A DNA stretch of 32,000 nt from an uncultured bacterium. Its GTDB lineage: Bacteria; Patescibacteriota; Gracilibacteria; UBA1369; PNNO01. The stretch is taken from contig OY969931.1 of NCBI GenBank assembly GCA_963704705.1, forward strand, positions 1,260,001-1,292,000. Reading direction: 5' to 3'. A model generated the notes under the pieces. It did not search any database. It saw nothing but the letters and a program-made list of their open reading frames with translations, and was not told the origin of the DNA. A program made the position numbers and the translations under genes. This document shows positions 1,794 to 14,238 of this stretch, in pieces; the stretch's first letter is position 1; each line of letters starts with the position of its first letter.

Positions 1794-3365
1794 CTAAATT
1801 TTATCAATAACCTGAGCAATTATATATGCTGCCTCACCTCTGCCGATTTCTTCTTCAGCAACAAAAGTCGAGCCGTTATATAATCCGTTGCTAACCGCCC
1901 AATCCATATAAGGCTTATACCACTCCTGGCCAGGCTTAACAGTTGGCAAACTAATTCCCGCGCTTTCCAAAGCCATTTTTATTGCTTCGACACGATTGAC
2001 TTTTTGATCCGGTTTAAATGTCCCGTCCGGATATCCCTGAACCATTTTATAAGCCACTCCGCTTAAAACATAAGGGAAATACCACTCGCCATCGTTCGTA
2101 TCTTTAAACGGATTAACAAAATCACTACCGCGCGTTTCAGCAAACCAGTATTTGGATGTATCGCGCGCAAAACTATTCAATGCCATTTTTAAAATTTCCG
2201 CTCTGTTAACTTTATCAACCGGCTTAAAAAGCAGACTATCGCCCTGACCTTTAACAATTCCAAGGTCAGCAAGATAAGTAATTGCATTATTAAAAATCGT
2301 ATTAATATCCACATCTTTAAAATATAAAACCGGCCCAAAATCTTTATCTTTTAATACATCCTTTATCACTCTCCAGTTCATTTTATCTTCTTTTCCGAGT
2401 CTCCAAATTGCAATTCCTCCCAAATCATATTTTTCAACAAGATCGAGTTTCGGCTTAATACTGACATGATTTTCAAACCAAACTTCATGCGGTATTTTTG
2501 GATCTCTCTCGTCAAATTCACTTATGTAAAAAAGTCTGTTTGTTTGTGTCGCGGGATCATACTGAAAATCCACACCATATTTGCTTAAAATAAGCTGGAT
2601 AGTGTCGTATGTATAGCTTGCAAAATAATCTCCGCTCCATCCATATCCATAAAAAGGAATGCCCAAATAAATTTTTTCTTTTGGTACATTATCAACCGCA
2701 TACTGAACAACTTCTTCCACCCAGTAATAAGGCGCTACAGGCCTTGGCACACTTCCGCTCCATCCATAATCATAAGTCATAATTCTGAACTCATCCACGT
2801 ATTGAGATAGAGCTTTCCAGTCCTGACCCCTGTCTCCAAACTTTAATAAAGTGGGATAAGATTTTGCCTGAATCGCAATCGTAAGTTTTTTATTATAATG
2901 ATTGAGTTCTTCGCGAAGATCCTTGATAAAAGCCGTAAAAGCCTCCTTGTCTTCGCTGTGGAGTCCTTCGTAATCTATATCGATCCCGTCATAATTAAAT
3001 TTTCGAACCAGGTCCACAATATTTTGAATACTAGATTTTTTTATTTCAGGATCATTAATAATTCCGCTTACCAAATCGCCGCTAAAAGAATTTGATATTG
3101 TTGGAATAATTGTTACACCATTATCTTTCGCAAATTTAATCAACTCCTGATTCTCACCATCCTTTGGTGGAGCCAAAGTGCCATCATTATTCAGATGATA
3201 CCAAAAAGGCGAAATTGTATTTATTGTATCCACATTATCTTTAAACGATTGAAATGCTTCATCGGTTTCCCACGATGGAAGCCATGCAGAAACATTGTAT
3301 TCTTTTGCCAAAGCAGTTGGAGCAATGAGCGCAAAAGCGCAAATAACAAGAAGTGTTTTTTTCAT
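1794..3365 (-). CDS. secreted glycoside hydrolase family 18 (chitinase/peptidoglycan hydrolase-like) with C-terminal SLH repeats
   Basis: Track ORF 1794..3617 trimmed to the internal ATG at 3365 (MKKTLLVICAFALIAPTALA, a signal peptide) because the extension overlaps the PBP gene. GH18 catalytic motif DGIDIDYE. Three C-terminal SLH-like repeats (FKDVDINTIFNNAITYLADLGIVKG.., FKDTNDGEWYFPYVLSGVAYKMVQGYPDGTFKPDQKVNRVEAI.., YKPYMDWAVSNGLYNG..). Confidence 0.85.
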   Translation of the reverse strand: MKKTLLVICAFALIAPTALAKEYNVSAWLPSWETDEAFQSFKDNVDTINTISPFWYHLNNDGTLAPPKDGENQELIKFAKDNGVTIIPTISNSFSGDLVSGIINDPEIKKSSIQNIVDLVRKFNYDGIDIDYEGLHSEDKEAFTAFIKDLREELNHYNKKLTIAIQAKSYPTLLKFGDRGQDWKALSQYVDEFRIMTYDYGWSGSVPRPVAPYYWVEEVVQYAVDNVPKEKIYLGIPFYGYGWSGDYFASYTYDTIQLILSKYGVDFQYDPATQTNRLFYISEFDERDPKIPHEVWFENHVSIKPKLDLVEKYDLGGIAIWRLGKEDKMNWRVIKDVLKDKDFGPVLYFKDVDINTIFNNAITYLADLGIVKGQGDSLLFKPVDKVNRAEILKMALNSFARDTSKYWFAETRGSDFVNPFKDTNDGEWYFPYVLSGVAYKMVQGYPDGTFKPDQKVNRVEAIKMALESAGISLPTVKPGQEWYKPYMDWAVSNGLYNGSTFVAEEEIGRGEAAYIIAQVIDKI

Positions 3366-3369
3366 ATAA

Positions 3370-5643
3370 TTACTTATCAGGTGGAATATTATAGTAATCA
3401 AAAAGGAAACTTGCAATATCACTAAAAATCGGCGCAGCGGTTTCAGATCCCCATTCACTCGCGCGCGGTCTGTCCAGTTTAACCAAAACAACAAATCTCG
3501 GGTTATCCACAGGCCCATAACCTGCAAAAGATGCGATTGTTGTACCTGCACCTTCCAGAGGTTCACCCCATTTATAAGTTTGGGATGTCCCTGTTTTTCC
3601 GGCAACATAATGGCCATCTACCTGACCTTTTTTAGCAACACCATTTTCAACTGAACTCACAAGCATTGCGGTAATTTTATTTGAAGTGTCTTCGCTGATC
3701 GCCTGCCCGATTACAGCTGGTTCAGTATATACGGTTTTCCCGCTACCATCAGTGATTGAATCTACAATATAGGGCTGCATAAGTGTTCCCTTATTGGCCA
3801 AAGCAGCATAAGCATTAACCATTTGCAAAGGTGTAACAGCAATACCCTGTCCAAATCCATGAGTGGCCAACTCAGAATCAGCCCATTGTGTAAAATATTC
3901 AACCTTTCCGGCTTCTTCTGTTTCAAATTCAATACCTGTTTTTTCTCCGAGTCCGAATTTCATCATATAACTGTAAAACAAATTTCTTCCGATTTTCTTG
4001 GCTACATAAGCCATTCCCACATTTGATGACTGTTCCAAAATGTTTGTCATTGTCTGAGTTCCCCTGTATTCGTTTGTTGAATTTCTGATTTCAAATTCAT
4101 CTACTTTAACCGGACCCGATTCGTAGAAAGTGCTGTTAGGAGTAACATCGCCATCATCAATTGCAGCAGCCATTGCAATAGGTTTAAATACTGAACCCGG
4201 TTCATAAATAGCAGCTACTATTTTATTTTGATAAACCTCCGGACCGAACCAATTTTCATATCTTTCATAAACAGGTTCTTTGCCTTCTTCAATATCCTTA
4301 AATACCTGAAATTTATCATCAGTATCATAATTTCTGTAAAAATTAAATTGAGTTTCGCTTTCATCAATTGGAACCAAACTATCCACTTCTTCCGGAGTAA
4401 ATTCCACATCAACCTTTTTAAATGCCTCAGAATAATTATTCGGATCAAACGTAGGATAATGTGCCATTGCAATAACTTTTGATGTTTTTGGATCAAGTAT
4501 CACAACCTGGCCGCTGTTTGCATTGTAGCGTTTAACTCCTGCGGCAAGTATTCTTTCGACTTCAAGCTCGATGGTTCTATCAATTGTTAACGTAATATTA
4601 TCACCATTAACAGCAGGCTCAATTACACTGTCGCCAACGGTAATCTGGCGGTTTTCAGCATCTTTTTGAGCTTTAAAAACACCATTTTTACCTCTCAGTA
4701 ATTTATCAAAACTTTCTTCAAGTCCATATTGTCCATTCCCCTCTGTATCAACAAATCCCAAAATATTAGCGGCTAAACTGCCTTCAGGATAAAATCTGGA
4801 ATACTCCTCTTTAAATCCTATACCCAAATAGTTGTGTTCACCGGGATGCTCGTCTTCATCTTTTTGAATTATCTCCCTTAGTTTTCGTGACCTTTCAGCT
4901 TCAACTTTTGTTGCGATAATTTCATATCTGTCTTCACCAATAAGTAATTGTTCAAGCCATGGAGCAGCAACGCCTAAATCTTCACTTAAAGCAATTGCCG
5001 TGTATCTTTTATCATAAATTCTTGCTGGATAGGCATATAAATTTCCTCCTCTGATTTCAATTCCATTTAGATTTTTTTTTGCAATGCCATCCAAGATATC
5101 TTGGGGTAAAGTATCATCAAGTAGAATTTCATCTCGTATTTCCATACTAACTTTCTTCAAAATAGTCTGATAAAATGAAGCTTTAAGTTCTTCATCTGAA
5201 AGCGGCTGAACACGATCATACGCTTCCATGTTACCTGTTCTTTTAAACTCACGTTTTTCTTCAATCATTCTTTGATTATCCTTTTCGCGTTCAGTATTCA
5301 AATCAAATAATGTTTCAGCCAATGCGCTGGCAACCATAGTTTTGTTAACGATTTGCTTCGGATCAACAAAAACAAGATCCAATGTTGTATTTGATGCAAC
5401 TGTGTAAGTTTCTCCATTTGTGTAGTCGTTAACTAAAATCTCTCCTCTTTTTGCAGGAAGTTCCGTATAACCCTGATGCGCTTTTGCCGCTGCATCATTA
5501 TAAAAATCATACCTTATAACCTGCAGATAAAATAACCTTATCATAATAATAAAACAGGAAACCCCAACTATTACCATTAAAAAAGTAATGGTATTAAATT
5601 GAAGTGTTCGCGCTGATTTTCTTCTATTGGTAGTGTAACTCAT
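3370..5643 (-). CDS. class B penicillin-binding protein (PBP2/FtsI-type transpeptidase)
   Basis: N-terminal membrane anchor (ITFLMVIVGVSCFIIMIRLFYL). Transpeptidase motifs SVFK (SxxK), SSN (SxN) and KTGT (KTG) occur in the canonical order. The stop lies 4 nt upstream of the GH18 start. Confidence 0.9.
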   Translation of the reverse strand: MSYTTNRRKSARTLQFNTITFLMVIVGVSCFIIMIRLFYLQVIRYDFYNDAAAKAHQGYTELPAKRGEILVNDYTNGETYTVASNTTLDLVFVDPKQIVNKTMVASALAETLFDLNTEREKDNQRMIEEKREFKRTGNMEAYDRVQPLSDEELKASFYQTILKKVSMEIRDEILLDDTLPQDILDGIAKKNLNGIEIRGGNLYAYPARIYDKRYTAIALSEDLGVAAPWLEQLLIGEDRYEIIATKVEAERSRKLREIIQKDEDEHPGEHNYLGIGFKEEYSRFYPEGSLAANILGFVDTEGNGQYGLEESFDKLLRGKNGVFKAQKDAENRQITVGDSVIEPAVNGDNITLTIDRTIELEVERILAAGVKRYNANSGQVVILDPKTSKVIAMAHYPTFDPNNYSEAFKKVDVEFTPEEVDSLVPIDESETQFNFYRNYDTDDKFQVFKDIEEGKEPVYERYENWFGPEVYQNKIVAAIYEPGSVFKPIAMAAAIDDGDVTPNSTFYESGPVKVDEFEIRNSTNEYRGTQTMTNILEQSSNVGMAYVAKKIGRNLFYSYMMKFGLGEKTGIEFETEEAGKVEYFTQWADSELATHGFGQGIAVTPLQMVNAYAALANKGTLMQPYIVDSITDGSGKTVYTEPAVIGQAISEDTSNKITAMLVSSVENGVAKKGQVDGHYVAGKTGTSQTYKWGEPLEGAGTTIASFAGYGPVDNPRFVVLVKLDRPRASEWGSETAAPIFSDIASFLFDYYNIPPDK

Positions 5644-5722
5644 GGACTCACATTGTAATAAAAAATATTAGTAAAGGAAAGAGATCAATGTTATCCTCAA
5701 ATAAGTAATTAATTCAAATACT

Positions 5723-6985
5723 ATGCATAAGAAAATCACCCTTCCAAATAATTTAAGAATTATCACTGAAAAACAAGAAAGCACAAAGGCGGTAACAATC
5801 CTTATTCTTGCCGGTGCAGGCTCGCGATACGAATCAAAAGATATTTGCGGGATCTCGCATTTTCTTGAACACATGTTTTTTAAAGGAGCAAAAAAATTTA
5901 AAAATACCAAAGAAGTAAGCGAAGCAATTGATTCTATAGGTGGAGATTTCAATGCGTTCACAGGCAAAGAATATGCTGGTTATTACGTTAAAGCCGCCAG
6001 CGACCAAATAGAAGTTGCTATGGATGTTCTTTCAGACATGCTTCTTCACGCACGTTTCGATCCAAAAGAAATCGATAAAGAACGCGGCGTGATTCTGGAA
6101 GAATACAATATGTATCAAGATACCCCTATGTATCAAATAGGATGGGATTTTGAAAAACTTGTATTTGGCGACCAGCCGCTGGGCCGCGACCAAATCGGCA
6201 CTCCGGAATTTATAAAATCCGTGACTCAGGAGCAGTTTCAAACTTATAAAAACAAACTCTACACGCCCGACAATATAGTATTAACATTGGCTGGTGATAT
6301 TGATTATGACAAAATGATGCCGCTTCTTGAAAAATATTTCGCATTCGAAAACGAAGCAAAATCATATAATTTTGACCCATACAAAAAGCCTGAGAATAGC
6401 CGTAAAATCTATCTTCATGAAAAATCCACAGAACAAGCGCATGTTGTTGTGGGCGGCCAATCCTACAAAGAAACTCACCCAATGCACTGGGCTGAAAAAC
6501 TTCTCGCAGTAATTCTCGGCGGAAACATGAGCTCACGAATGTTTCTGAATGTCCGCGAAGCAAAAGGCCTTTGTTATTACATAAGTACAAGCGCTGACAA
6601 TTTTATTGATACTGGAATTTTTTCAACCAGCGCAGGTGTTAATGTTGATGGAATTGATGATGCAGTCAAAGGAATCCTCGTTGAATACTCAAAAATCCGC
6701 GAAGATCGCGTTGATGAAAAAGAGCTGCAAAAAGCCAAAAACTTCATGAAAGGCAAAATGGTTCTTCGCCTCGAAGACTCAGAACAGCAAGCTCACATCC
6801 TCGGCAAATACGAACTTTTGCACGGCAGAATCATGACATTAAAAGAAATAATGGACGAGCTCGATAAAGTAACCATAGACCAAATCCAGCAGGTTGCCCA
6901 AGACATTCTTGCACCTTCGAATCTGCACATCGGAGTTATCGGCCCTTACGGAGATGCTTCGCGATTTGAGAAAATGCTTAATTAG
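5723..6985 (+). CDS. M16 family zinc metallopeptidase (pitrilysin-like)
   Basis: Inverted zincin motif HFLEH near the N-terminus. The ~420-aa two-lobed length is typical of M16B peptidases. Confidence 0.85.
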   Translation: MHKKITLPNNLRIITEKQESTKAVTILILAGAGSRYESKDICGISHFLEHMFFKGAKKFKNTKEVSEAIDSIGGDFNAFTGKEYAGYYVKAASDQIEVAMDVLSDMLLHARFDPKEIDKERGVILEEYNMYQDTPMYQIGWDFEKLVFGDQPLGRDQIGTPEFIKSVTQEQFQTYKNKLYTPDNIVLTLAGDIDYDKMMPLLEKYFAFENEAKSYNFDPYKKPENSRKIYLHEKSTEQAHVVVGGQSYKETHPMHWAEKLLAVILGGNMSSRMFLNVREAKGLCYYISTSADNFIDTGIFSTSAGVNVDGIDDAVKGILVEYSKIREDRVDEKELQKAKNFMKGKMVLRLEDSEQQAHILGKYELLHGRIMTLKEIMDELDKVTIDQIQQVAQDILAPSNLHIGVIGPYGDASRFEKMLN

Positions 6986-7406
6986 ACCACAAATACGGCC
7001 ATTTATAATATCTATCAACCAAACCTGCCTTAACAGGATTATTCAAGATATACTTTTTTACTCTAGCCAATTCAATCCCTACATTTACTTCTTTGTGACA
7101 AAATCTTCCCTCGAAAACATGACCTGTATGATTCCTTGTTCTATTAAAATATCTTGCATATGAATACTGTAAAACCTGACTGAATTTTGAAATATTTTTA
7201 GCAAAATGATCGCTTCTTAACAAGATATGAAAGTGATTTGGCATCACACAACCCACTTGAGTTTCAATCAAATACTTTTTTGCAAATTGACTTATTTTAA
7301 ACAAAAAAAAGCGATAATCCTGGTCGTCTCTGAATATTAACCTTTTAGAAACAGCTCGATTATAAATATGATAGTACGTATTTTTTCGCAAAGAAGGATA
7401 CCTCAT
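6978..7406 (-). CDS. IS200/IS605-type Y1 (HUH) transposase, REP-associated tyrosine transposase (RAYT)-like
   Basis: 142 aa. Contains YYHIYNRAV.., the HUH motif in PNHFHILL, and C-terminal YILNNPVKAGLV characteristic of the Y1_Tnp family. Its 3' end overlaps the convergent M16 gene by 8 nt. Confidence 0.75.
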   Translation of the reverse strand: MRYPSLRKNTYYHIYNRAVSKRLIFRDDQDYRFFLFKISQFAKKYLIETQVGCVMPNHFHILLRSDHFAKNISKFSQVLQYSYARYFNRTRNHTGHVFEGRFCHKEVNVGIELARVKKYILNNPVKAGLVDRYYKWPYLWSN

Positions 7407-7476
7407 GGCAATATTATCCCAAATAAAAATTAAAAAAATCTAAAATTTTTTTAAAATTTTTCTCCTCAAATCAACC

Positions 7477-7505
7477 TCGTCGCACGAACTGTGTTCGTGC
7501 GACGA
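7477..7505. repeat. GC-rich perfect hairpin (13-bp stem, 3-nt loop) upstream of the Y1 transposase gene; REP/IS200-end-like
   Basis: TCGTCGCACGAAC-tgt-GTTCGTGCGACGA, with every stem position checked as complementary. It lies about 70 nt upstream of the transposase ATG in otherwise AT-rich spacer and has no flanking T-tract. Confidence 0.6.
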
Positions 7506-7641
7506 ATCCACTTCGACGGGAAAACCAAAACATATCCACAAAAAACCGCAACCTACACAAGCCACGGTTGTTATTGTAAGTGCAAGCCAAATAAGGCACA
7601 CTTAATTTTAGGCATATTAATTCATACTAATCCTTATAAAT

Positions 7642-8220
7642 ATGAACACAACCGACCTTTCCGAGAAGGTCCAGCAGGAAATAATTGAGGAGTTCAAGAA
7701 TAACCCCGACGCGTTCGAAAAAATTTACAATTTTTACTACGAGCGCATCCTCAAGTATTTACTTAAAAGGACCGCTTCAGCTGAGGCCGCATACGACCTC
7801 ACAGCTGACACCTTTATAAAAGCGTTCGAGTCATTTCATAAGTTTAAATGGACCGGCATTTCTGTAAAAGTCTGGCTTTACCGCATTGCAATAAATGCAT
7901 TGAAAAACCACAGAAGAAAGCCACAAAGCCAAGTTCTTACTGCTGAGATGGAAGGCATGGAAATCCTTGCGACAAATGCAAAAGAAGAACTCGAAGAATT
8001 AGACAAGGCAATGCACGGAGACGAAGACCTAAGCAAGCTGAGTGATGCAGTGGCAACTCTAAATCCAAAATATCAAAACATAGTTTCTCTGCATTATTTC
8101 GAAGGAATGTCACACAAAGAAATCGCGCACACAATACAAAGATCAGAAAGTGCAGTTAAATCAATGATGCACAGAGCACTTGAAAATTTACGTCAATTAT
8201 TAGCAACTAACACTATATAA
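7642..8220 (+). CDS. ECF-type sigma-70 family RNA polymerase sigma factor
   Basis: Region 2-like AAYDLTADTFIKAFESFHKFKWTGISVKVWLYRIAINALKNHRRK and region 4 HTH-like LNPKYQNIVSLHYFEGMSHKEIAHTIQRSESAVKSMMHRALENLR. 192 aa. Confidence 0.85.
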   Translation: MNTTDLSEKVQQEIIEEFKNNPDAFEKIYNFYYERILKYLLKRTASAEAAYDLTADTFIKAFESFHKFKWTGISVKVWLYRIAINALKNHRRKPQSQVLTAEMEGMEILATNAKEELEELDKAMHGDEDLSKLSDAVATLNPKYQNIVSLHYFEGMSHKEIAHTIQRSESAVKSMMHRALENLRQLLATNTI

Positions 8221-8222
8221 CA

Positions 8223-11200
8223 ATGGAAAATAACTATACAAACAGGAAGGTCGACCGTATTGAGGTCGATAAGTCCCAAAAATATCTCTGGAAGTATATC
8301 CAGGAAAAAAAGCATCTTGGCCTTAGCCAGCAAACAGCAAAAGCCAAAAAGGCGCATAATTCTTCTTGGTTCACGCCTAAAAAGTTTGCTTGGCTAGGAA
8401 CAATTGCGGCGCTCACAATTATTGCTGTTCTTGTCGTGCCAAATCTGCAAAATTTACTAAAAGGTGACATTACCGGCCAATCGATGATTGCAAATGCGCA
8501 TTTTACAATGACCGCAGACTCGCAGGATTCAGCCGGAATCGACAGCAAATCTTCTTTCACGCTCACCTCTGATGTTGATTTGGATGCTGCGTTGATTGAA
8601 GCGAATTTGGAATCGCTGCCAACCATTGATCTTAATGTTACTAAGATTGAAGCAGGAAAATATAAAGTGGAACCAGCGCAAAATCTTGAATCAAATACTA
8701 TATATAACTTCACGATCACAAGTGTTAATGAAGGCAAAACCGAAGAATTCAGCTGGGCTTATCAGGTTAAAGATGAATTTAAAATTTACGGATCAATGCC
8801 GGGTGACAAAACAACAAGCGTGCCTATTAATAGCGGAATCGAAATCGCATTCTCGCATGAAAATTACGACACAGAACAAGTAAAAAATTATTTTGAAATT
8901 TCACCTGCAACCGAAGGTTCATTTGAAAAACACAACAGAGTATTGGTTTTTGTTCCGACAAAAGGCTTAAATCCAAGCACAATTTACACTGTAACCGTTA
9001 AAGCAGGTTTACCTTTAAAAGATTCAGATAAAAAACTCGCTGAAGATTTCTCATTCAGTTTTGAAACTTCTAATGTAAGTTCAACAGGCGGTACAAACTT
9101 TTATTTTAATCAGGATTATTACGAGATCGGCACAAACATGCCGGTTGCAATGGGAGCTGCATGGTATGGCATGACTGATGAAGCAACTGACAACACTGTA
9201 AATGTTAAAATCCACAAATTTAAATCTGAAGAAGATTACATAAAAGTAGTTAAAGAGCGAAACGAAATTCCTTCATGGGCTCGCTATGCAAAAGAGAATT
9301 ACGCTTACAATCGTGATCAAATGAATTATATGGGTGAGTTCGACGGCACCATTGAAGAAATTGAATACAGCAAATTTATTTATGTCCCAACTGCCCAGCT
9401 TGAGCCTGGATTTTACCTGTTCACAGCCCAAAACAACGATAAAGTTTCAACCACACTGGTTCAGATCACTGATCTTTCAAGCTATATCAATCTTACAAAA
9501 GACGGCAATTTGGTTTGGGTAAATGATGTTTCAACAGGACAGCCTGTTAATAACGCAACTGTTGAATTATTGGATGAAAATAAATCAATCAAAACAAATG
9601 CAGATGGTATCGCTACATTTAATATGGATTTCTCAGATACTGGAAGCATTATTATAAAAGTCACTTCTCCTGACGGAAAAGTTCAGATTTCAAACTTATA
9701 TATTAATGAATACCAAAAAGAAGCAGCGAATTTAGCTGATTACTGGTATACATTTACAACTGACAGACCAGTTTACCAGCCCAGTGATACAATAGAATTC
9801 TGGGGCTTCTTAAAGCCTAAATCAGGCGACACGCAGGTTGGTGAAATTAAGGCTGAATTATATCAGGGTGGATATTTCTGGAACCTCGGAACTTATAGCG
9901 AAGAAGTTATCGCTGAAAAAGGCAATAACAATACTTTCCATGGAAATCTAGAAACTCAGGATCTGCCACCGGGTTATTACACACTAAGTATATATAATGA
10001 CGACGAGTTAATTTCGCAGGAATATATTGAAATTGTCAGTTATGCAAAACCTTCATATCAAATAGATGTGACAACTGATAAAAGAGCTATTTTCTACGAT
10101 GAAAAAATCAAAGTTGATATTATAAGCAGGTTCTTTGATGGTACGCCTGTGCCATTCCTTAAACTTTATTATAATGTTGCAGATCAGCTTACCACTGATG
10201 CAAACGGCAAATACAGTTTTGAATACACTCCTAAATCAGACTTTTATTGTTCTGATGACGGGCAATCTTGCGAAAATTTTCGCAATGAATATTTAACTTT
10301 TGATCCGGTTCCAAAAGAAGATTCCATGATTTCGGGTAAAGCCAATGTTAGGGTTTTCAAATCGCGTATTGCAATTAAAGCTAAGACTAAAACTGAGAAC
10401 AATATTGCGAATGTAAAAATCACAACTAATAAAGTTGATTTAACACCTTTAAATGAAGATGAAAACGCAGGCTACAACGATTACCTGGGAGAAGCAGCGC
10501 CAAATAGAGATATCAAAGGAAAACTAATTGAATTTTGGTGGGATAAAATCGAAACCGGTGAACATTATGATTTTATAAATAAAATTACAGTTAAAGAATA
10601 CAGATATGAAACCAGAGAAAATATTGTTGGCGAAATAAGTCTTTCTTCAGATGCAAACGGTGAAGCAGAATATAATTTTGAAATGCAGCCAAATAAACAT
10701 TACAGAGTAGTTCTAAATGCTGCTGATGATCAGGGTAAACTTTCTCATACAACCGCTTACGCTTATGGCAAAACAACAAACAATGATGAGTACAAAAGAA
10801 TAAAAATATTAAATTCAGAAGAAGAATACGGCCCTTATAAATTTGAGCTTGGCAAAGCAGTTGAAACCGCGATTGTTGCGCAGGACAGCGTTATCACACC
10901 TAAAGAGAATGAAAAATACTTATTCATGCAGCTAAATAACGGCTTAACCGAATATGCTGTTAAAGCCAGTCCTACTTACAACTTCACCTTCAAGCAGGCG
11001 CAGGTTCCTGGTGTTAGAGTTGAGGGCATAATTTTCACAGGTAAATATTATGAAACTGTGTGGGGTGATACTGTTATGTATGATCCAAAAGAAAAAACAA
11101 TTAATGTTGAGGTAAAAGCTAACAAAGATACTTTTGAACCCGGCGAAAAAGCCACTTTAACAGTTAAAACAACAGACCTAAACGGAAAACCTGTTTCAGC

Positions 11201-13544
11201 TGAAGTTCTGCTGGATCTTGTTGATGAAGCTTATTATGAACTCTTCTGGGATTCGCTTGAAAATCCATTGGACGAACTTTATAGATTTATTAATGACGGA
11301 GTTTATTCAACTTACAGCACGCATGAAAATCCAATGGTAAAAACAGAAGGAGGTTTAGGCGGATGCTTTAAAGAAGGAACAAAAATATTAATGGATGATA
11401 TGGGTTATAAAAATATTGAAGATATCGAAGTTGGTGATTTTATTACAACAAAGGAATCTGCCTTATCTGACCGTTTTGTTAAAGCAAAGGTTCTTAAATT
11501 GCAAAAGCACACTGTTAGCGCGTATCTTGTAATTAATGAGGATTTGGAAGTTACACCTGAACATGTTGTGTTTGTTAACGGTCATTTTGACCTGGCAGGC
11601 AAAGTTAAAGTTGGCGACACTATGCTGGATAAAGACGGTAATTCAATTGAGGTATGGGGTGTGCGCAAAGTTTATGAGCCAACTAAAGTTTATAATTTTG
11701 AAGTTGAACACTACCACACTTACTTTGCAAATAATTACTATGTTCATAATGACAAAGGCGGTGCGCGAAGCGAATTTAAAGACACTGCTTTATTCAAATC
11801 TGTAACTACAAACGGCAGTGGTGATGCGCAAATTACTTTCGAACTTCCTGATAACATTACCAGCTGGCGTGTTACAGCGCTTGCAATTGATTCGGATCAA
11901 ATACGTGCGGGTCGTGGCGGCGGCAACATAATTGTAACTAAACCGTTCTTTGCAGACCTTGTAATGAACAAAGAATATTCAATAAAGGACGAACCTAATA
12001 TTGGCTTAAGAGCATACGGAAAAGAAATAACAAAAGACGACAATGTTACCTTTACTGTTGGAGACGATGTAATTAACGGCAAAGCTTATACAGCTGTTGA
12101 TTACAAGCTTCCTAAACTTGAACTTGGCGAACATGAACTTAGACTTGATGCAAAATCAGGCAACTACGAAGATGCGCTAATTGAAAAATATGAAGTTGTC
12201 GGCTCTCGCCTAAAACAGACTAATGTTGAAATTTTACCTACCGTAACCGAAGAAACAGACTTCCCAATGCCGAGTGAAGGCTATGCGAAAGTTTACTTCT
12301 TAAATGCCGGACTTGCAGGCCACTACGGACAATTACTTTCACTTTATTATACAAATGGCGAACGACTTGACCAAAAATTATCAGAACAAATTGGCAAAGA
12401 TTTAATTAATGAATATTTTGATTTGGGATTTGTTGATAGAACGGTTTTTGATCCGGCAGATTATCAAAATTTTGATGGCGGATTAAAACTACTTCAATAT
12501 GCTGACCCTGATTTGAAATTAACAGCCTTGGCAACTGCTGTTGATCCAAAAGATAACAGGTTTTCAAAAGCGAGTCTTAAATCATATTTCTATCAAAAAT
12601 ATATGGATAAAGACGCAAATCTCGAAGAAGTTGTTCTTTCATTACTTGGATTGGCCAGTATTGATGAGCCTGTTCTTCAAAGTCTTCAAATCATAAAAGA
12701 TGAACCAAAATTAAGCCTGGAAGATAAAATTTATATTGGTCTTGCATTTGCCGAACTTGGAAGCAAAAACGATGCATCACAAATTTATAATGAAGTTAAA
12801 GGTTCGTTTATGAATGATAACCCTGACCAGACCGCTCTTGGAACAGTGCTTGCTGCTGCGGTTGGAGAAAAAGACGATGCATTCAAATACTGGGAATATG
12901 TGGGACGAAAACAGTTAAAAGATGATATTCCAAACATTTATTTAATGGGATATTTAAAATATTCATTAAAAACAGCTGACCCTGACAGTGTTAAGTTTAC
13001 GGCACGAATCGGCGATACTGAAAAAGAAGTCGAGCTTGATAAATGTGAAACTTTCAACACTCTTGCAAGCAGCTTTAAAGGTTTAAGTGTTGCAAATGTT
13101 GATGGCGATTTGGCTGCGGTTGTTGTGTACGACGAAGCAATTGAACCAAGTGAATTTAAAAGATCCGATATAATAAATATTAGCAGGTCATACAAAGTTA
13201 ATGGCGTAGAAACAACCGATTTTACCGAAGGTGATTTGGTTGAGGTAAACCTTGCAATAAATTATTCAGGTGAAGGCGACGCTTACTTCCAAATTACAGA
13301 TGTGCTGCCTAGCGGACTTAAAATATTAAGCAGTTCAGGTGCACCATTTGGAACAAATGGCCAGGAAGTTTTCTATGGCTGGTCTACCAAAACTCCGCGA
13401 AACATAAGTTATTATGCAACTGTTGTTAATAGCGGTAAGTTCTATGCTGACCCAGCGCGAATATCAAAATATGATGACTGGGAAATCGCAAATATATCTG
13501 AACCTGTATTTATAACAATTTCGAGTTATAATGAGGCCCCATAA
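8223..13544 (+). CDS. membrane-anchored alpha-2-macroglobulin-like giant surface protein (thioester motif absent) with inserted Hint domain
   Basis: The ATG lies 2 nt after the sigma stop. A ~55-aa N-terminal cytoplasmic segment precedes one TM helix (FAWLGTIAALTIIAVLVVP). Ig-like repeats follow, then an MG-domain signature TDRPVYQPSDTIEFWGFLKP. The A2M-family signature is RSEFKDTALFKSVTTNGSGDAQITFELPDNITSWRVTALA, and the C-terminus carries ITDVLPSGLKILS. The protein has only 4 Cys and none sits in a CxEQ context. Confidence 0.75.
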   Translation: MENNYTNRKVDRIEVDKSQKYLWKYIQEKKHLGLSQQTAKAKKAHNSSWFTPKKFAWLGTIAALTIIAVLVVPNLQNLLKGDITGQSMIANAHFTMTADSQDSAGIDSKSSFTLTSDVDLDAALIEANLESLPTIDLNVTKIEAGKYKVEPAQNLESNTIYNFTITSVNEGKTEEFSWAYQVKDEFKIYGSMPGDKTTSVPINSGIEIAFSHENYDTEQVKNYFEISPATEGSFEKHNRVLVFVPTKGLNPSTIYTVTVKAGLPLKDSDKKLAEDFSFSFETSNVSSTGGTNFYFNQDYYEIGTNMPVAMGAAWYGMTDEATDNTVNVKIHKFKSEEDYIKVVKERNEIPSWARYAKENYAYNRDQMNYMGEFDGTIEEIEYSKFIYVPTAQLEPGFYLFTAQNNDKVSTTLVQITDLSSYINLTKDGNLVWVNDVSTGQPVNNATVELLDENKSIKTNADGIATFNMDFSDTGSIIIKVTSPDGKVQISNLYINEYQKEAANLADYWYTFTTDRPVYQPSDTIEFWGFLKPKSGDTQVGEIKAELYQGGYFWNLGTYSEEVIAEKGNNNTFHGNLETQDLPPGYYTLSIYNDDELISQEYIEIVSYAKPSYQIDVTTDKRAIFYDEKIKVDIISRFFDGTPVPFLKLYYNVADQLTTDANGKYSFEYTPKSDFYCSDDGQSCENFRNEYLTFDPVPKEDSMISGKANVRVFKSRIAIKAKTKTENNIANVKITTNKVDLTPLNEDENAGYNDYLGEAAPNRDIKGKLIEFWWDKIETGEHYDFINKITVKEYRYETRENIVGEISLSSDANGEAEYNFEMQPNKHYRVVLNAADDQGKLSHTTAYAYGKTTNNDEYKRIKILNSEEEYGPYKFELGKAVETAIVAQDSVITPKENEKYLFMQLNNGLTEYAVKASPTYNFTFKQAQVPGVRVEGIIFTGKYYETVWGDTVMYDPKEKTINVEVKANKDTFEPGEKATLTVKTTDLNGKPVSAEVLLDLVDEAYYELFWDSLENPLDELYRFINDGVYSTYSTHENPMVKTEGGLGGCFKEGTKILMDDMGYKNIEDIEVGDFITTKESALSDRFVKAKVLKLQKHTVSAYLVINEDLEVTPEHVVFVNGHFDLAGKVKVGDTMLDKDGNSIEVWGVRKVYEPTKVYNFEVEHYHTYFANNYYVHNDKGGARSEFKDTALFKSVTTNGSGDAQITFELPDNITSWRVTALAIDSDQIRAGRGGGNIIVTKPFFADLVMNKEYSIKDEPNIGLRAYGKEITKDDNVTFTVGDDVINGKAYTAVDYKLPKLELGEHELRLDAKSGNYEDALIEKYEVVGSRLKQTNVEILPTVTEETDFPMPSEGYAKVYFLNAGLAGHYGQLLSLYYTNGERLDQKLSEQIGKDLINEYFDLGFVDRTVFDPADYQNFDGGLKLLQYADPDLKLTALATAVDPKDNRFSKASLKSYFYQKYMDKDANLEEVVLSLLGLASIDEPVLQSLQIIKDEPKLSLEDKIYIGLAFAELGSKNDASQIYNEVKGSFMNDNPDQTALGTVLAAAVGEKDDAFKYWEYVGRKQLKDDIPNIYLMGYLKYSLKTADPDSVKFTARIGDTEKEVELDKCETFNTLASSFKGLSVANVDGDLAAVVVYDEAIEPSEFKRSDIINISRSYKVNGVETTDFTEGDLVEVNLAINYSGEGDAYFQITDVLPSGLKILSSSGAPFGTNGQEVFYGWSTKTPRNISYYATVVNSGKFYADPARISKYDDWEIANISEPVFITISSYNEAP
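11364..11750 (+). other. Hint (mini-intein / bacterial intein-like) domain embedded in the A2M-like ORF, residues 1048-1176
   Basis: Starts with Cys (TGC 11364-11366) in CFKEGTKILMDDMGY (block A-like). Contains LEVTPEHVVF (TxxH, block B-like) and VYNFEVEHYHTYFANNYYVHN (block F/G-like, ending His-Asn at 11745-11750). At 129 aa there is no room for a homing endonuclease. The +1 residue is Asp, and the flanks are Gly-rich (EGGLGG / DKGG). Confidence 0.8.
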
Positions 13545-13555
13545 CTTATAATATT

Positions 13556-14182
13556 ATGAAGAAATTTATAGTAACAATACTTGCGTTAAGCCTTTTAACA
13601 GCTTGTAATTCTCCGGCACAAACTACCGAAGGCACTCAGGAATTAAATATTGATCTTGCTAAAATACAAATGCAGATTCCATCTAATTTGCATATCGAGA
13701 TTCAGCGAAAACCTAATTCGGAACCAAGAATATATGTTGTTTTAGGCGAAGAATATTACACAAACGGAGAAATAAACCCATTGATAAGATTTACAATTGA
13801 AGAAAAGAATTTTGAGGAATGGATGACTGAAAACTGGGATGCTCCTTTCTACCCTCTTGAAAATTCATGTGAGGTTGAAAAGCCGATGATAGGTGAAATT
13901 TTCGGTTGTGAACAATCCGCTGATAACATTACCTCATACTATCAAACCAATAAAATGGGTGAATTGAGTGCTGTTAAAAAATATTATTTTGAACGTGAAG
14001 GAAATGATTGGCCGAAAATTGAAATTTGGGTTGATCTATACACTGATGATTTCAAAGAAAAACTCGGACCAAATCCAACTTATGAATCAATGAAAGCAGA
14101 ATTTGCAAAATTGCAGCTTACTGCAGAGCAAAAACATCGCATTAAATTAGCTGAGGATATTATAAAATCGATGAAATATTAA
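13556..14182 (+). CDS. predicted lipoprotein, function unknown
   Basis: MKKFIVTILALSLLTAC has a lipobox (L-T-A-C). It starts 11 nt after the A2M-like gene on the same strand. Confidence 0.65.
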   Translation: MKKFIVTILALSLLTACNSPAQTTEGTQELNIDLAKIQMQIPSNLHIEIQRKPNSEPRIYVVLGEEYYTNGEINPLIRFTIEEKNFEEWMTENWDAPFYPLENSCEVEKPMIGEIFGCEQSADNITSYYQTNKMGELSAVKKYYFEREGNDWPKIEIWVDLYTDDFKEKLGPNPTYESMKAEFAKLQLTAEQKHRIKLAEDIIKSMKY

Positions 14183-14227
14183 TTACTAAGTAATTGGTAC
14201 TTACTAAGTAACCCCGCCTTACTAAGT
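14181..14227. repeat. three copies of TTACTAAGT phased at exactly 18 bp, with palindromic cores
   Basis: Copies lie at 14183-14191, 14201-14209 and 14219-14227. Copy 1 sits in a 15-bp perfect palindrome AATTACTAAGTAATT (14181-14195) that overlaps the lipoprotein stop codon. Copy 2 sits in TACTTACTAAGTA (14198-14210, 6-1-6 palindrome). Confidence 0.7.
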
Positions 14228-14238
14228 GGGGTTATTTT
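14209..14238 (+). terminator. possible intrinsic terminator of the sigma/A2M/lipoprotein operon
   Basis: Stem TAACCCC (14209-14215) pairs with GGGGTTA (14228-14234), a 12-nt loop contains repeat copy 3, and TTTT follows. The large loop makes it weak. Confidence 0.4.

Follow-up and report, generated by a model that had tools for sequence, protein, structure and literature searches.

The window analysed here is a stretch of 32,000 nucleotides (nt) from the complete, single-contig 1.37 Mb genome of an uncultured bacterium of the Gracilibacteria lineage (contig OY969931.1, positions 1,260,001 to 1,292,000). By the names attached to homologues, this ultra-small groundwater bacterium belongs to the Peribacteria of the Patescibacteria, within the candidate phyla radiation. 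Positions 7642 to 14182 of the window hold, on the plus strand, a gene for an extracytoplasmic function (ECF) sigma factor, a gene for a giant protein resembling alpha-2-macroglobulin (A2M) and a gene for a lipoprotein. The sigma factor gene (7642..8220, 192 amino acids) has a TAA stop codon ending at 8220, and only two nucleotides ('CA') separate it from the ATG at 8223 that opens the giant reading frame (8223-13544, 1773 aa). The lipoprotein open reading frame (ORF; 13556..14182, 208 aa), which carries the lipobox LLTAC and matches LPAM_1, starts 11 nt beyond the end of the giant ORF. An earlier sequence-only reading of this DNA had given the same positions and gaps, and the ORF coordinates bear them out. 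A consensus scan found no plus-strand terminator-like site within 7642-14182 and placed a hairpin with a T-run at 14216..14232 (+), likely the 3' end of the operon. On the 5' side lies a candidate ECF-type promoter, AAAACCGCAAC-N17-GTTATTGTAA (7542..7579, +), 63 nt from the sigma start codon. Considered jointly with the anti-sigma explanation developed below, the three genes probably form a single autoregulated operon.

We searched the product of the first gene against family models. It matched Sigma70_r2 (PF04542) with 47 bits (cut-off 24), r4_2 (PF08281) with 56 bits (cut-off 25.7) and TIGR02937 with 99.2 bits (cut-off 42.9), and no region 3 match was found in its 192 residues. Having regions 2 and 4 and lacking region 3, it is classified by these domain matches as an ECF (group 4) sigma-70 factor.

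The giant protein begins with a candidate minimal anti-sigma segment, a cytoplasmic tail of 54 residues (aa 1-54; 8223..8384, +), proposed on the basis of its charge, its motif and its co-occurrence with the sigma factor. The tail contains 13 K/R and 5 D/E residues (net charge +8) and reads, in order, NRKVDx5-6KSxKYLWKYIQ (aa 7-27), a variable Lys-rich linker and WFTPKKFAW at the membrane. It is followed by a single transmembrane helix (aa 55-73; 8385..8441, +), the only Kyte-Doolittle window of at least 1.5 in all 1773 residues (2.27, the next best anywhere being 1.41), and directly after the helix by an extracytoplasmic PNLQNLL that is conserved in the homologue alignment. Because there is one hydrophobic window preceded by a basic 54-aa N-terminus, the predicted topology is type II, N-in and single-pass. 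This agrees with the earlier description of an approximately 55-aa cytoplasmic N-terminus, one transmembrane helix and a huge outer part. The same reading saw no HxxxCxxC motif of zinc-binding anti-sigma (ZAS) domains; with no Cys in aa 1-54, such a motif is impossible. No lipobox was found at the N-terminus, and the anchor is the transmembrane helix with its tail.

The N-terminal half of the ectodomain (8442..11363, +) consists, by Pfam and AlphaFold, of Ig-like/MG domains and a bait-region domain. Pfam matches in the giant protein are Big_5 (aa 186-282), bMG3 (415-469), MG2 (511-592), A2M_BRD (886-1007) and A2M (1188-1248). A flexible Gly-rich loop (aa 1020-1047) follows A2M_BRD; an intein-like Hint domain (11364..11750, +) comes next, and then MG7, CUB, a TED-like helical domain (aa 1362-1584) and MG8 (11751..13544, +; Pfam A2M, AlphaFold and Foldseek). 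Our AlphaFold model, built for aa 880-1773 with a 64-sequence alignment, has a mean pLDDT of 89. It runs from the bait-region domain through a disordered loop (model residues 156-167, pLDDT <50), the Hint domain, a short second disordered stretch and beta domains to a helical toroid (model residues 483-705), after which more beta domains follow. The best Foldseek matches in the PDB were E. coli ECAM (4rtd/5a42/4ziq), Salmonella A2M (4u48), CD109 and A2ML1 (E ~1e-27), followed by human A2M, insect TEP1 and complement C5, the whole set spanning E ~1e-27 to 1e-22. Given the model and these matches to solved A2Ms, the extracytoplasmic part is predicted to be a complete A2M/TEP scaffold. Its thioester is gone, as had been read from the sequence: PYGCVEQTMS of same-order paralogues aligns to NGERLDQKLS here (GCxEQ to ERLDQ), the thioester Cys is replaced by Arg in RLDQ (aa 1381-1384; 12363-12374), and none of the four Cys residues of the protein (676, 683, 1048 and 1608) stands in a CxEQ context. 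G1379 and R1381 are invariant in homologue alignment A2.

Co-occurrence of the cytoplasmic tail and the sigma factor

From the same order and class we collected 45 A2M-like loci; without three shortened ORFs and one duplicate, 41 were scored for the start of the first transmembrane helix and for an ECF sigma ORF directly upstream on the same strand. All 28 loci with a long tail (helix starting at aa 38 or later) had the sigma gene upstream, at gaps of -38 to +41 nt and, in L018, 222 nt. None of the 11 loci with a short signal anchor (helix starting at aa 12 or earlier) had one. The other two, L038 and L051, have a long open frame with no sigma gene (0/2); in both, an internal Met directly precedes the hydrophobic stretch, and over-extended start codons are the simplest explanation. 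Among the first 19 loci taken alone, 18 had a sigma gene directly upstream. The adjacency of the two genes, which the sequence-only reading had put forward as the feature to look for in relatives, is thus conserved far beyond what chance would give, as an anti-sigma role of the tail predicts. The 10 closest loci (L002-L010) have sigma factors 67-91% identical to that of the window; for the remaining eight the range is 28-60%.

The rule holds separately within three groups of proteins. It holds in the Hint-bearing family of ~1800 aa. In a Hint-less family of ~1650 aa, G054 and G042 have tail and sigma factor and G060, G051 and G030, which belong to the same two taxonomic families (f19, f15), have neither. 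In a thioester-bearing family of ~2100-2200 aa, tail and sigma factor are both present in L033, L040, L041, L044 and L045 and both absent from L034, L035 and L037. Searches of whole genomes gave the same picture. The G054 sigma factor has a 55-61% orthologue in G042 and only paralogue-level matches of 30-34% in G030, G060 and G051; G046, a complete single contig whose Hint-bearing A2M has a short anchor, reaches 24% in its best match to the window's sigma factor; and G006, a member of the window's own family that lacks such an A2M, reaches 28%. Judging from these comparisons, the sigma orthologue is missing genome-wide where the tail is missing, and tail and sigma factor appear to have been lost together. 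At least three subfamilies show such gains or losses.

The tail itself is also well kept. Mean identity over 39 homologues is 56% in the motif (aa 6-29), 43% in the ectodomain and 13% in the Lys-rich linker; the motif ranks among the best-conserved segments of the giant protein, and the tail is evidently under selection. In a tree of the sigma factors, the A2M-linked sequences fall into four well-supported clades that mirror the A2M subfamilies and the tail types. Behind each of the other three ECF sigma genes of the window's genome stands a gene for a membrane protein whose N-terminus is cytoplasmic; two of these proteins are single-pass and the third is apparently multi-pass.

We then compared tails by profile. 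In three other sigma-linked A2M clades the tails contain two helices (...LxxLxxxLKK... then P..(E)FKxxLRxxLL), and their profile matches the N-terminus of the FecR/DUF5667-type sigma partner of this order (hhalign score 28.7, E 6.6e-5; reversed control 12.3, twelve column shuffles at most 9.0). An ECF sigma factor with a single-pass FecR plus DUF5667 partner of ~600 aa is nearly universal in the order, occurring in 53 of 61 genomes (L084-L113).

Promoter and candidate regulon

A shared pattern, AACCGCAAC-N16/17-GTTATTG, stands upstream of the sigma gene in 11 orthologous loci, where the sites read AAAACCGCAAC-N16/17-GTTATTG and the -35 element contains AAC. In the window the -35 core CCGCAAC occupies 7546-7552 and the -10 core GTTATTG 7570-7576. 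We built a position weight matrix (PWM) from the sites of the 11 loci, the window's own included, and scanned the genome with it. The sigma factor's own site, which is part of the matrix, ranked top in the genome with 39.4. The sites after it precede a 317-aa lipoprotein (1210901, +; 37.2), a 533-aa SLH protein (573863, -; 36.7), a small lipoprotein (1205117, -; 32.2), a 625-aa SLH paralogue (96466, -; 30.5) and, at a distance of 220 nt, lipoprotein-like ORFs (188094, -; 29.9). With mononucleotide shuffling the scores went up to 27.7, 23.3 and 19.9, and the lowest-ranked of these sites therefore stand only marginally above chance. The two SLH-domain proteins are paralogues with 52% identity. 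The scan showed no further copy of the promoter within the A2M gene.

Across the window's family, the exact promoter pattern was found 27 times in 12 of 13 genomes and its reversed control not once. The only genome without a match was G006, which is also the one without a sigma orthologue and without this A2M type. Of the 26 distinct family sites, 24 lie 3-120 nt 5' of a gene for a sigma factor, a lipoprotein or an SLH-domain protein; of the remaining two, L079 precedes an unclear ORF and L081 has no ORF of 50 aa or more within 220 nt. G011 and G010 carry one more copy of the promoter, located after the stop codon of the A2M gene and before the lipoprotein gene. This places the lipoprotein position in the regulon also in genomes where it does not lie translationally close. 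From the distribution of these sites, the sigma factor appears to be functional, autoregulated and dedicated to envelope proteins. The sites themselves are observed; their use by the window's sigma factor is what we infer from them.

Some smaller features surround the promoter and the start codons. Palindromes (GGTTACTAAGTAACC and TTACCAGGTAAG) abut the sigma promoter directly 5' of the -35 element in L008 (G009) and L005 (G008), and a word they contain, TTACTAAGT, recurs behind the window's lipoprotein gene (14183-14227); the palindrome may be an operator or a repeat element. Directly 5' of the ATG stand the similar leader words ACTAATCCTTATAAAT, ACTAACCTTAAAAT and ACTAACCTAATAAT, in the window (7625-7641) and before two regulon genes (G000 573797 and 1210969). 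No classical Shine-Dalgarno sequence was found before these three start codons, and the leader word may be a lineage-specific translation signal.

Hint domain, lipoprotein and genomic setting

The Hint domain (aa 1048-1176) was identified by Pfam PT-HINT (2.4e-12, match at aa 1045-1176) and is confidently modelled by AlphaFold (model residues 169-297). It has Cys1, TPEH (TxxH) and a C-terminal VHN, and its +1 residue is Asp. In ~60 homologues it is an exact insertion in the Gly-rich loop (AEGGG|CF...YVHN|DKGG...R), and in ~12 homologues without it the loop is contiguous (...AEGGGGGGD...R). Cys1, TxxH and the terminal HN are conserved across the Hint-bearing homologues, while the +1 position varies among D, E, N, Q, S, K and A. 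A canonical (class 1) intein was rejected, the +1 residue being Asp and not Cys, Ser or Thr. The N-terminal nucleophile, the terminal HN, the missing +1 nucleophile and the surface-protein host together assign the domain to the bacterial intein-like (BIL) type. As its conservation (55%) equals that of the best parts of the giant protein, it is probably active. According to PMC7664689, which cites Amitai et al., BIL domains without a +1 nucleophile mainly give N- and C-terminal cleavage products. With Cys1, TxxH and HN intact and no +1 nucleophile, the domain would probably process its own chain at the bait-loop position, leaving two fragments held together non-covalently. It resembles A-type BIL domains (Amitai 2003, as cited in PMC7664689) in Cys1, TxxH and terminal HN, in having no Cys, Ser or Thr at +1, in lacking an endonuclease and in sitting in an extracellular protein. 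An A2M host and a bait-loop position, as seen for the window's Hint domain, were not found described for BIL domains in the literature searched.

Hint domain, sigma link and thioester occur independently of one another, in differing combinations among the loci. The window and its kin have the Hint domain and the sigma factor and no thioester; L036 has Hint domain, sigma factor and a CVEQ thioester; L020 has a Hint domain and no sigma factor. Sigma factor and thioester occur without a Hint domain in L033, L040, L044 and L045, the sigma factor alone in L028, L030 and L041, and the thioester alone in L034, L035, L037 and others. L036 (G026:C14, ORF 2637-7913) encodes 1758 aa, overlaps the upstream sigma gene (ATGA), keeps the Hint domain with an intact CVEQ, and looks like an intermediate form. 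Because the modules are combined in such different ways, Hint cleavage cannot be a signal that the system always requires, nor does losing the thioester go hand in hand with the sigma link.

The lipoprotein is more restricted. It has only three homologues in a database of 5.8 billion proteins, and it is in the window's family, f17 and G046, and not beyond these, that a lipoprotein gene commonly follows downstream. The model of the protein is of moderate quality (pLDDT 73), with a weak match to a Mog1p/PsbP-like fold (E 4e-4, TM 0.45). By its position, and by the promoter copies in G011 and G010, it would be an accessory member of the regulon, and its confinement to these groups argues against a place in the core. 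The sigma-coupled module seen by the sequence-only reading is partly supported. Its adjacency is kept and its tail and sigma factor are lost together, but the relay of Hint cleavage to the sigma factor does not stand as its core, with sigma-linked A2Ms that have no Hint domain and a Hint-bearing L020 that has no sigma factor, and neither does the lipoprotein. On this evidence, the Hint domain is best regarded as an optional add-on and not as the signalling core.

We also noted the genes on either side of the operon. The sigma promoter is separated from an M16 peptidase gene (5723-6985) by an IS200-like Y1 transposase gene (6978-7406, -) and a GC-rich hairpin (7476-7506). The M16 gene ends directly 5' of the promoter in five relatives (L004, L005, L006, L008 and L009); G004 shares the window's IS200-like insertion, and three more diverged copies of the transposase (43-55% identical) are present in the genome. 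Two kilobases upstream of the sigma gene are genes for a PBP2-type transpeptidase (3370-5643, -) and an SLH-anchored GH18 hydrolase (1794-3617, -). A pairing of the A2M with PBP1c was rejected, the sole nearby PBP (3370-5643, -) having transpeptidase and dimerisation domains only. Downstream, a second ECF sigma gene (15216-15842, +) overlaps the start of a gene for a 244-aa membrane protein (15826-16560, +), which has a short N-terminus in the cytoplasm, apparently crosses the membrane several times and gave no Pfam match. Orthologues of this second sigma factor also lie just 3' of the A2M operon in G011 and G009.

A candidate anti-sigma protein and its place among known systems

Taken together, these observations suggest that the A2M-like protein is most likely the cognate anti-sigma factor of the ECF sigma factor encoded upstream. 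We propose that the basic 54-aa tail binds and sequesters the sigma factor. The most likely trigger would be an A2M ectodomain that is damaged or changes its conformation, for example when a foreign protease cuts the exposed loop beside the Hint domain. By analogy with RseA, RsiW and RsiV, the ectodomain would be removed, and the site-2 protease present in the genome (Peptidase_M50, PF02163, 196.8 bits, G000:942308-943864) would then cut within the membrane, in regulated intramembrane proteolysis that releases the sigma factor. The freed sigma factor would then transcribe its own operon from AACCGCAAC-N16/17-GTTATTG, along with a small envelope regulon of two SLH-domain proteins and several lipoproteins. 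This explanation as a whole, from autoregulated operon and sequestering tail to an ectodomain event that frees the sigma factor for an envelope regulon, strikes us as the probable one, with considerable doubt attached.

Several results weigh against it. Pfam (E up to 1) detected no known anti-sigma domain in 42 tails, nor did profile searching of the PDB with the tail return an anti-sigma chain. The window's tail type matched neither the FecR-type partner tails (E 0.32) nor the tails of the other A2M clades (E 0.56) significantly; because its tail has no significant profile similarity to other partner tails, the anti-sigma case for the window's own clade is contextual. The A2M-linked sigma factors are not resolved in the tree as one clade separate from two other ECF sigma factors of the genome, and the tree is compatible with a single origin of the pairing but does not show one. 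The 41 scored loci are kin, and the independent events behind the counts are fewer than the loci. Finally, the bait/Hint site lies ~970 residues from the membrane. Cleavage at that distance gives no site-2 substrate by itself, and a separate site-1 step must be assumed.

Ten further tails yielded no anti-sigma family with Pfam at E up to 10, and family models did not find a class I four-helix domain (zf-HC2, RskA, RseA_N and others) in the tails. Weak tail matches to DUF3176 and DUF7203 were set aside, neither being an anti-sigma family. Short two-helix class II anti-sigma factors exist, and anti-sigma domains of <50 aa escape standard models (PMC7406223); the same study set domains below that length aside as possible class II factors, which leaves room for a tail as short as this one.

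The missing anti-sigma domain, together with the lack of profile similarity between the tail of this clade and other sigma-partner tails, would also suit a simpler account in which the sigma and A2M genes are merely co-transcribed. The A2M would then be a sigma-regulated surface defence whose tail serves for anchoring, sorting or some other partner, and the sigma factor would be controlled by other means, such as transcription or turnover. A2M genes in related lineages of the candidate phyla radiation (CPR) have been described as encoding giant surface proteins with a possible role in protection from host proteases (PMC9793634). This account, however, leaves unexplained why tail and sigma factor are gained and lost jointly in three A2M subfamilies and why conservation in a 24-aa cytoplasmic motif exceeds that of the ectodomain, and the other ECF sigma genes of the genome share the layout of sigma gene followed by membrane-protein gene. 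We consider it unlikely, if serious. Somewhat less credit still goes to the idea that the protein is an anti-sigma factor responding to something other than foreign proteolysis, be it the state of the envelope or S-layer, contact with a host cell or a ligand, with the Hint domain serving only to mature the protein. A regulon of SLH proteins and lipoproteins suits envelope homeostasis as well as it suits defence; the thioester, the hallmark of protease trapping, has been lost to a conserved RLDQ; the Hint domain occurs independently of the sigma link; and the cleavage point is distant from the membrane. Yet the protein keeps the full domain set of a native A2M, with a bait-region domain and a loop that is flexible and exposed, and same-order sigma-linked paralogues with intact CxEQ point to trap chemistry in the ancestral design.

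We also considered whether the giant protein is a surface protein of the polymorphic-toxin or adhesin type, with a pretoxin-Hint domain that sets free an effector at its C-terminus. PT-HINT is indeed the best Pfam match of the insert, and some database entries are named 'polymorphic toxin-type HINT domain-containing protein'. The region after the Hint domain, however, is MG7-CUB-TED-MG8, modelled at pLDDT 89 and matching solved A2Ms, and not a toxin domain; the Hint-less homologues are contiguous A2Ms, and no immunity-type gene was recognised downstream. We rejected this reading, the part behind the Hint domain being A2M, and regard it as very improbable. Returning to the anti-sigma explanation, one extension of it would be a self-contained sense-and-respond immune circuit. 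Here the surface A2M trap, of complement/A2M kind, would itself be the receptor: an attacking protease, perhaps of a host or a competitor, springs or cuts it, the tail frees the sigma factor, and the cell makes the trap anew and remodels its envelope of SLH proteins and lipoproteins. In the branch with a Hint domain and no TED thioester, a Gly-Cys thioester that the Hint domain forms at the bait loop may in this scheme take over as the reactive group and couple the membrane-bound half to its target. We offer this version as a speculation that is rather doubtful.

If the preferred explanation is true, an A2M trap doubles as a sensor that switches on envelope genes. The in vivo role of bacterial A2Ms is largely obscure, and a link to a sigma factor would give a genetic read-out of trap activation in the form of a promoter and a small regulon. 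Sigma factor biology would in turn gain a very large, structurally understood sensor domain and a 54-aa predicted sigma-holding segment unrecognised by current models. CPR bacteria cannot be grown alone. This circuit would be among the few CPR signalling circuits that could be rebuilt wholly in E. coli, from sigma factor, tail, promoter and ectodomain. The differing combinations of sigma factor, Hint domain and thioester in relatives also provide a natural experiment that shows what each module contributes.

The proposed design most likely belongs with the ECF sigma/anti-sigma pairs, a version with an A2M sensor not having been found in the literature. No publication was found that connects an A2M to a sigma factor, to an anti-sigma factor or to a BIL domain, among sources judged in part by titles and abstract openings, and the main text of the ECF re-classification paper does not mention macroglobulin. 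Like RpoE-RseA, SigW-RsiW and SigV-RsiV, the window has an ECF sigma factor followed by a single-pass N-in membrane protein, a promoter, probably autoregulated, with AAC in its -35 element, a candidate envelope regulon and a site-2 protease in the genome. It differs from them in a tail of 54 aa that has no detectable class I domain, whether four-helix, ZAS or non-ZAS, and in a sensor that is a ~1700-aa A2M scaffold, for which no site-1 protease or cleavage site could be assigned. With class II anti-sigma factors (CnrY; NepR-like) it shares a very short predicted sigma-binding part of the kind, one or two helices, that standard models miss (PMC7406223). CnrY and NepR, in contrast, are small and have no large sensor domain, and no sequence similarity was found between them and the window's tail. 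The FecR/DUF5667-type partners of the order are alike in being single-pass and in standing directly 3' of an ECF sigma gene. Their N-termini resemble the tails of the three other A2M clades and not that of the window, and the giant protein's ectodomain is unrelated to theirs.

Bacterial A2Ms are the closest relatives of the ectodomain. E. coli ECAM/YfhM and Salmonella SaA2M are of the thioester type and YfaS/MagD of the thioester-less type. These types were reportedly set out by Budd in 2004, by Robert-Genthon in 2013 and by Wong and Dessen in 2014. The window's protein has the same order of MG, bait-region domain, CUB, TED and MG8, counts ECAM and SaA2M among its top structural matches, and is like MagD in lacking CxEQ. 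Whereas those proteins are anchored by a lipobox and partnered with PBP1c or a mag operon, this one is held by an N-terminal transmembrane helix with a cytoplasmic tail and is partnered with a sigma factor, and it carries a Hint domain at the bait loop and RLDQ at the thioester site.

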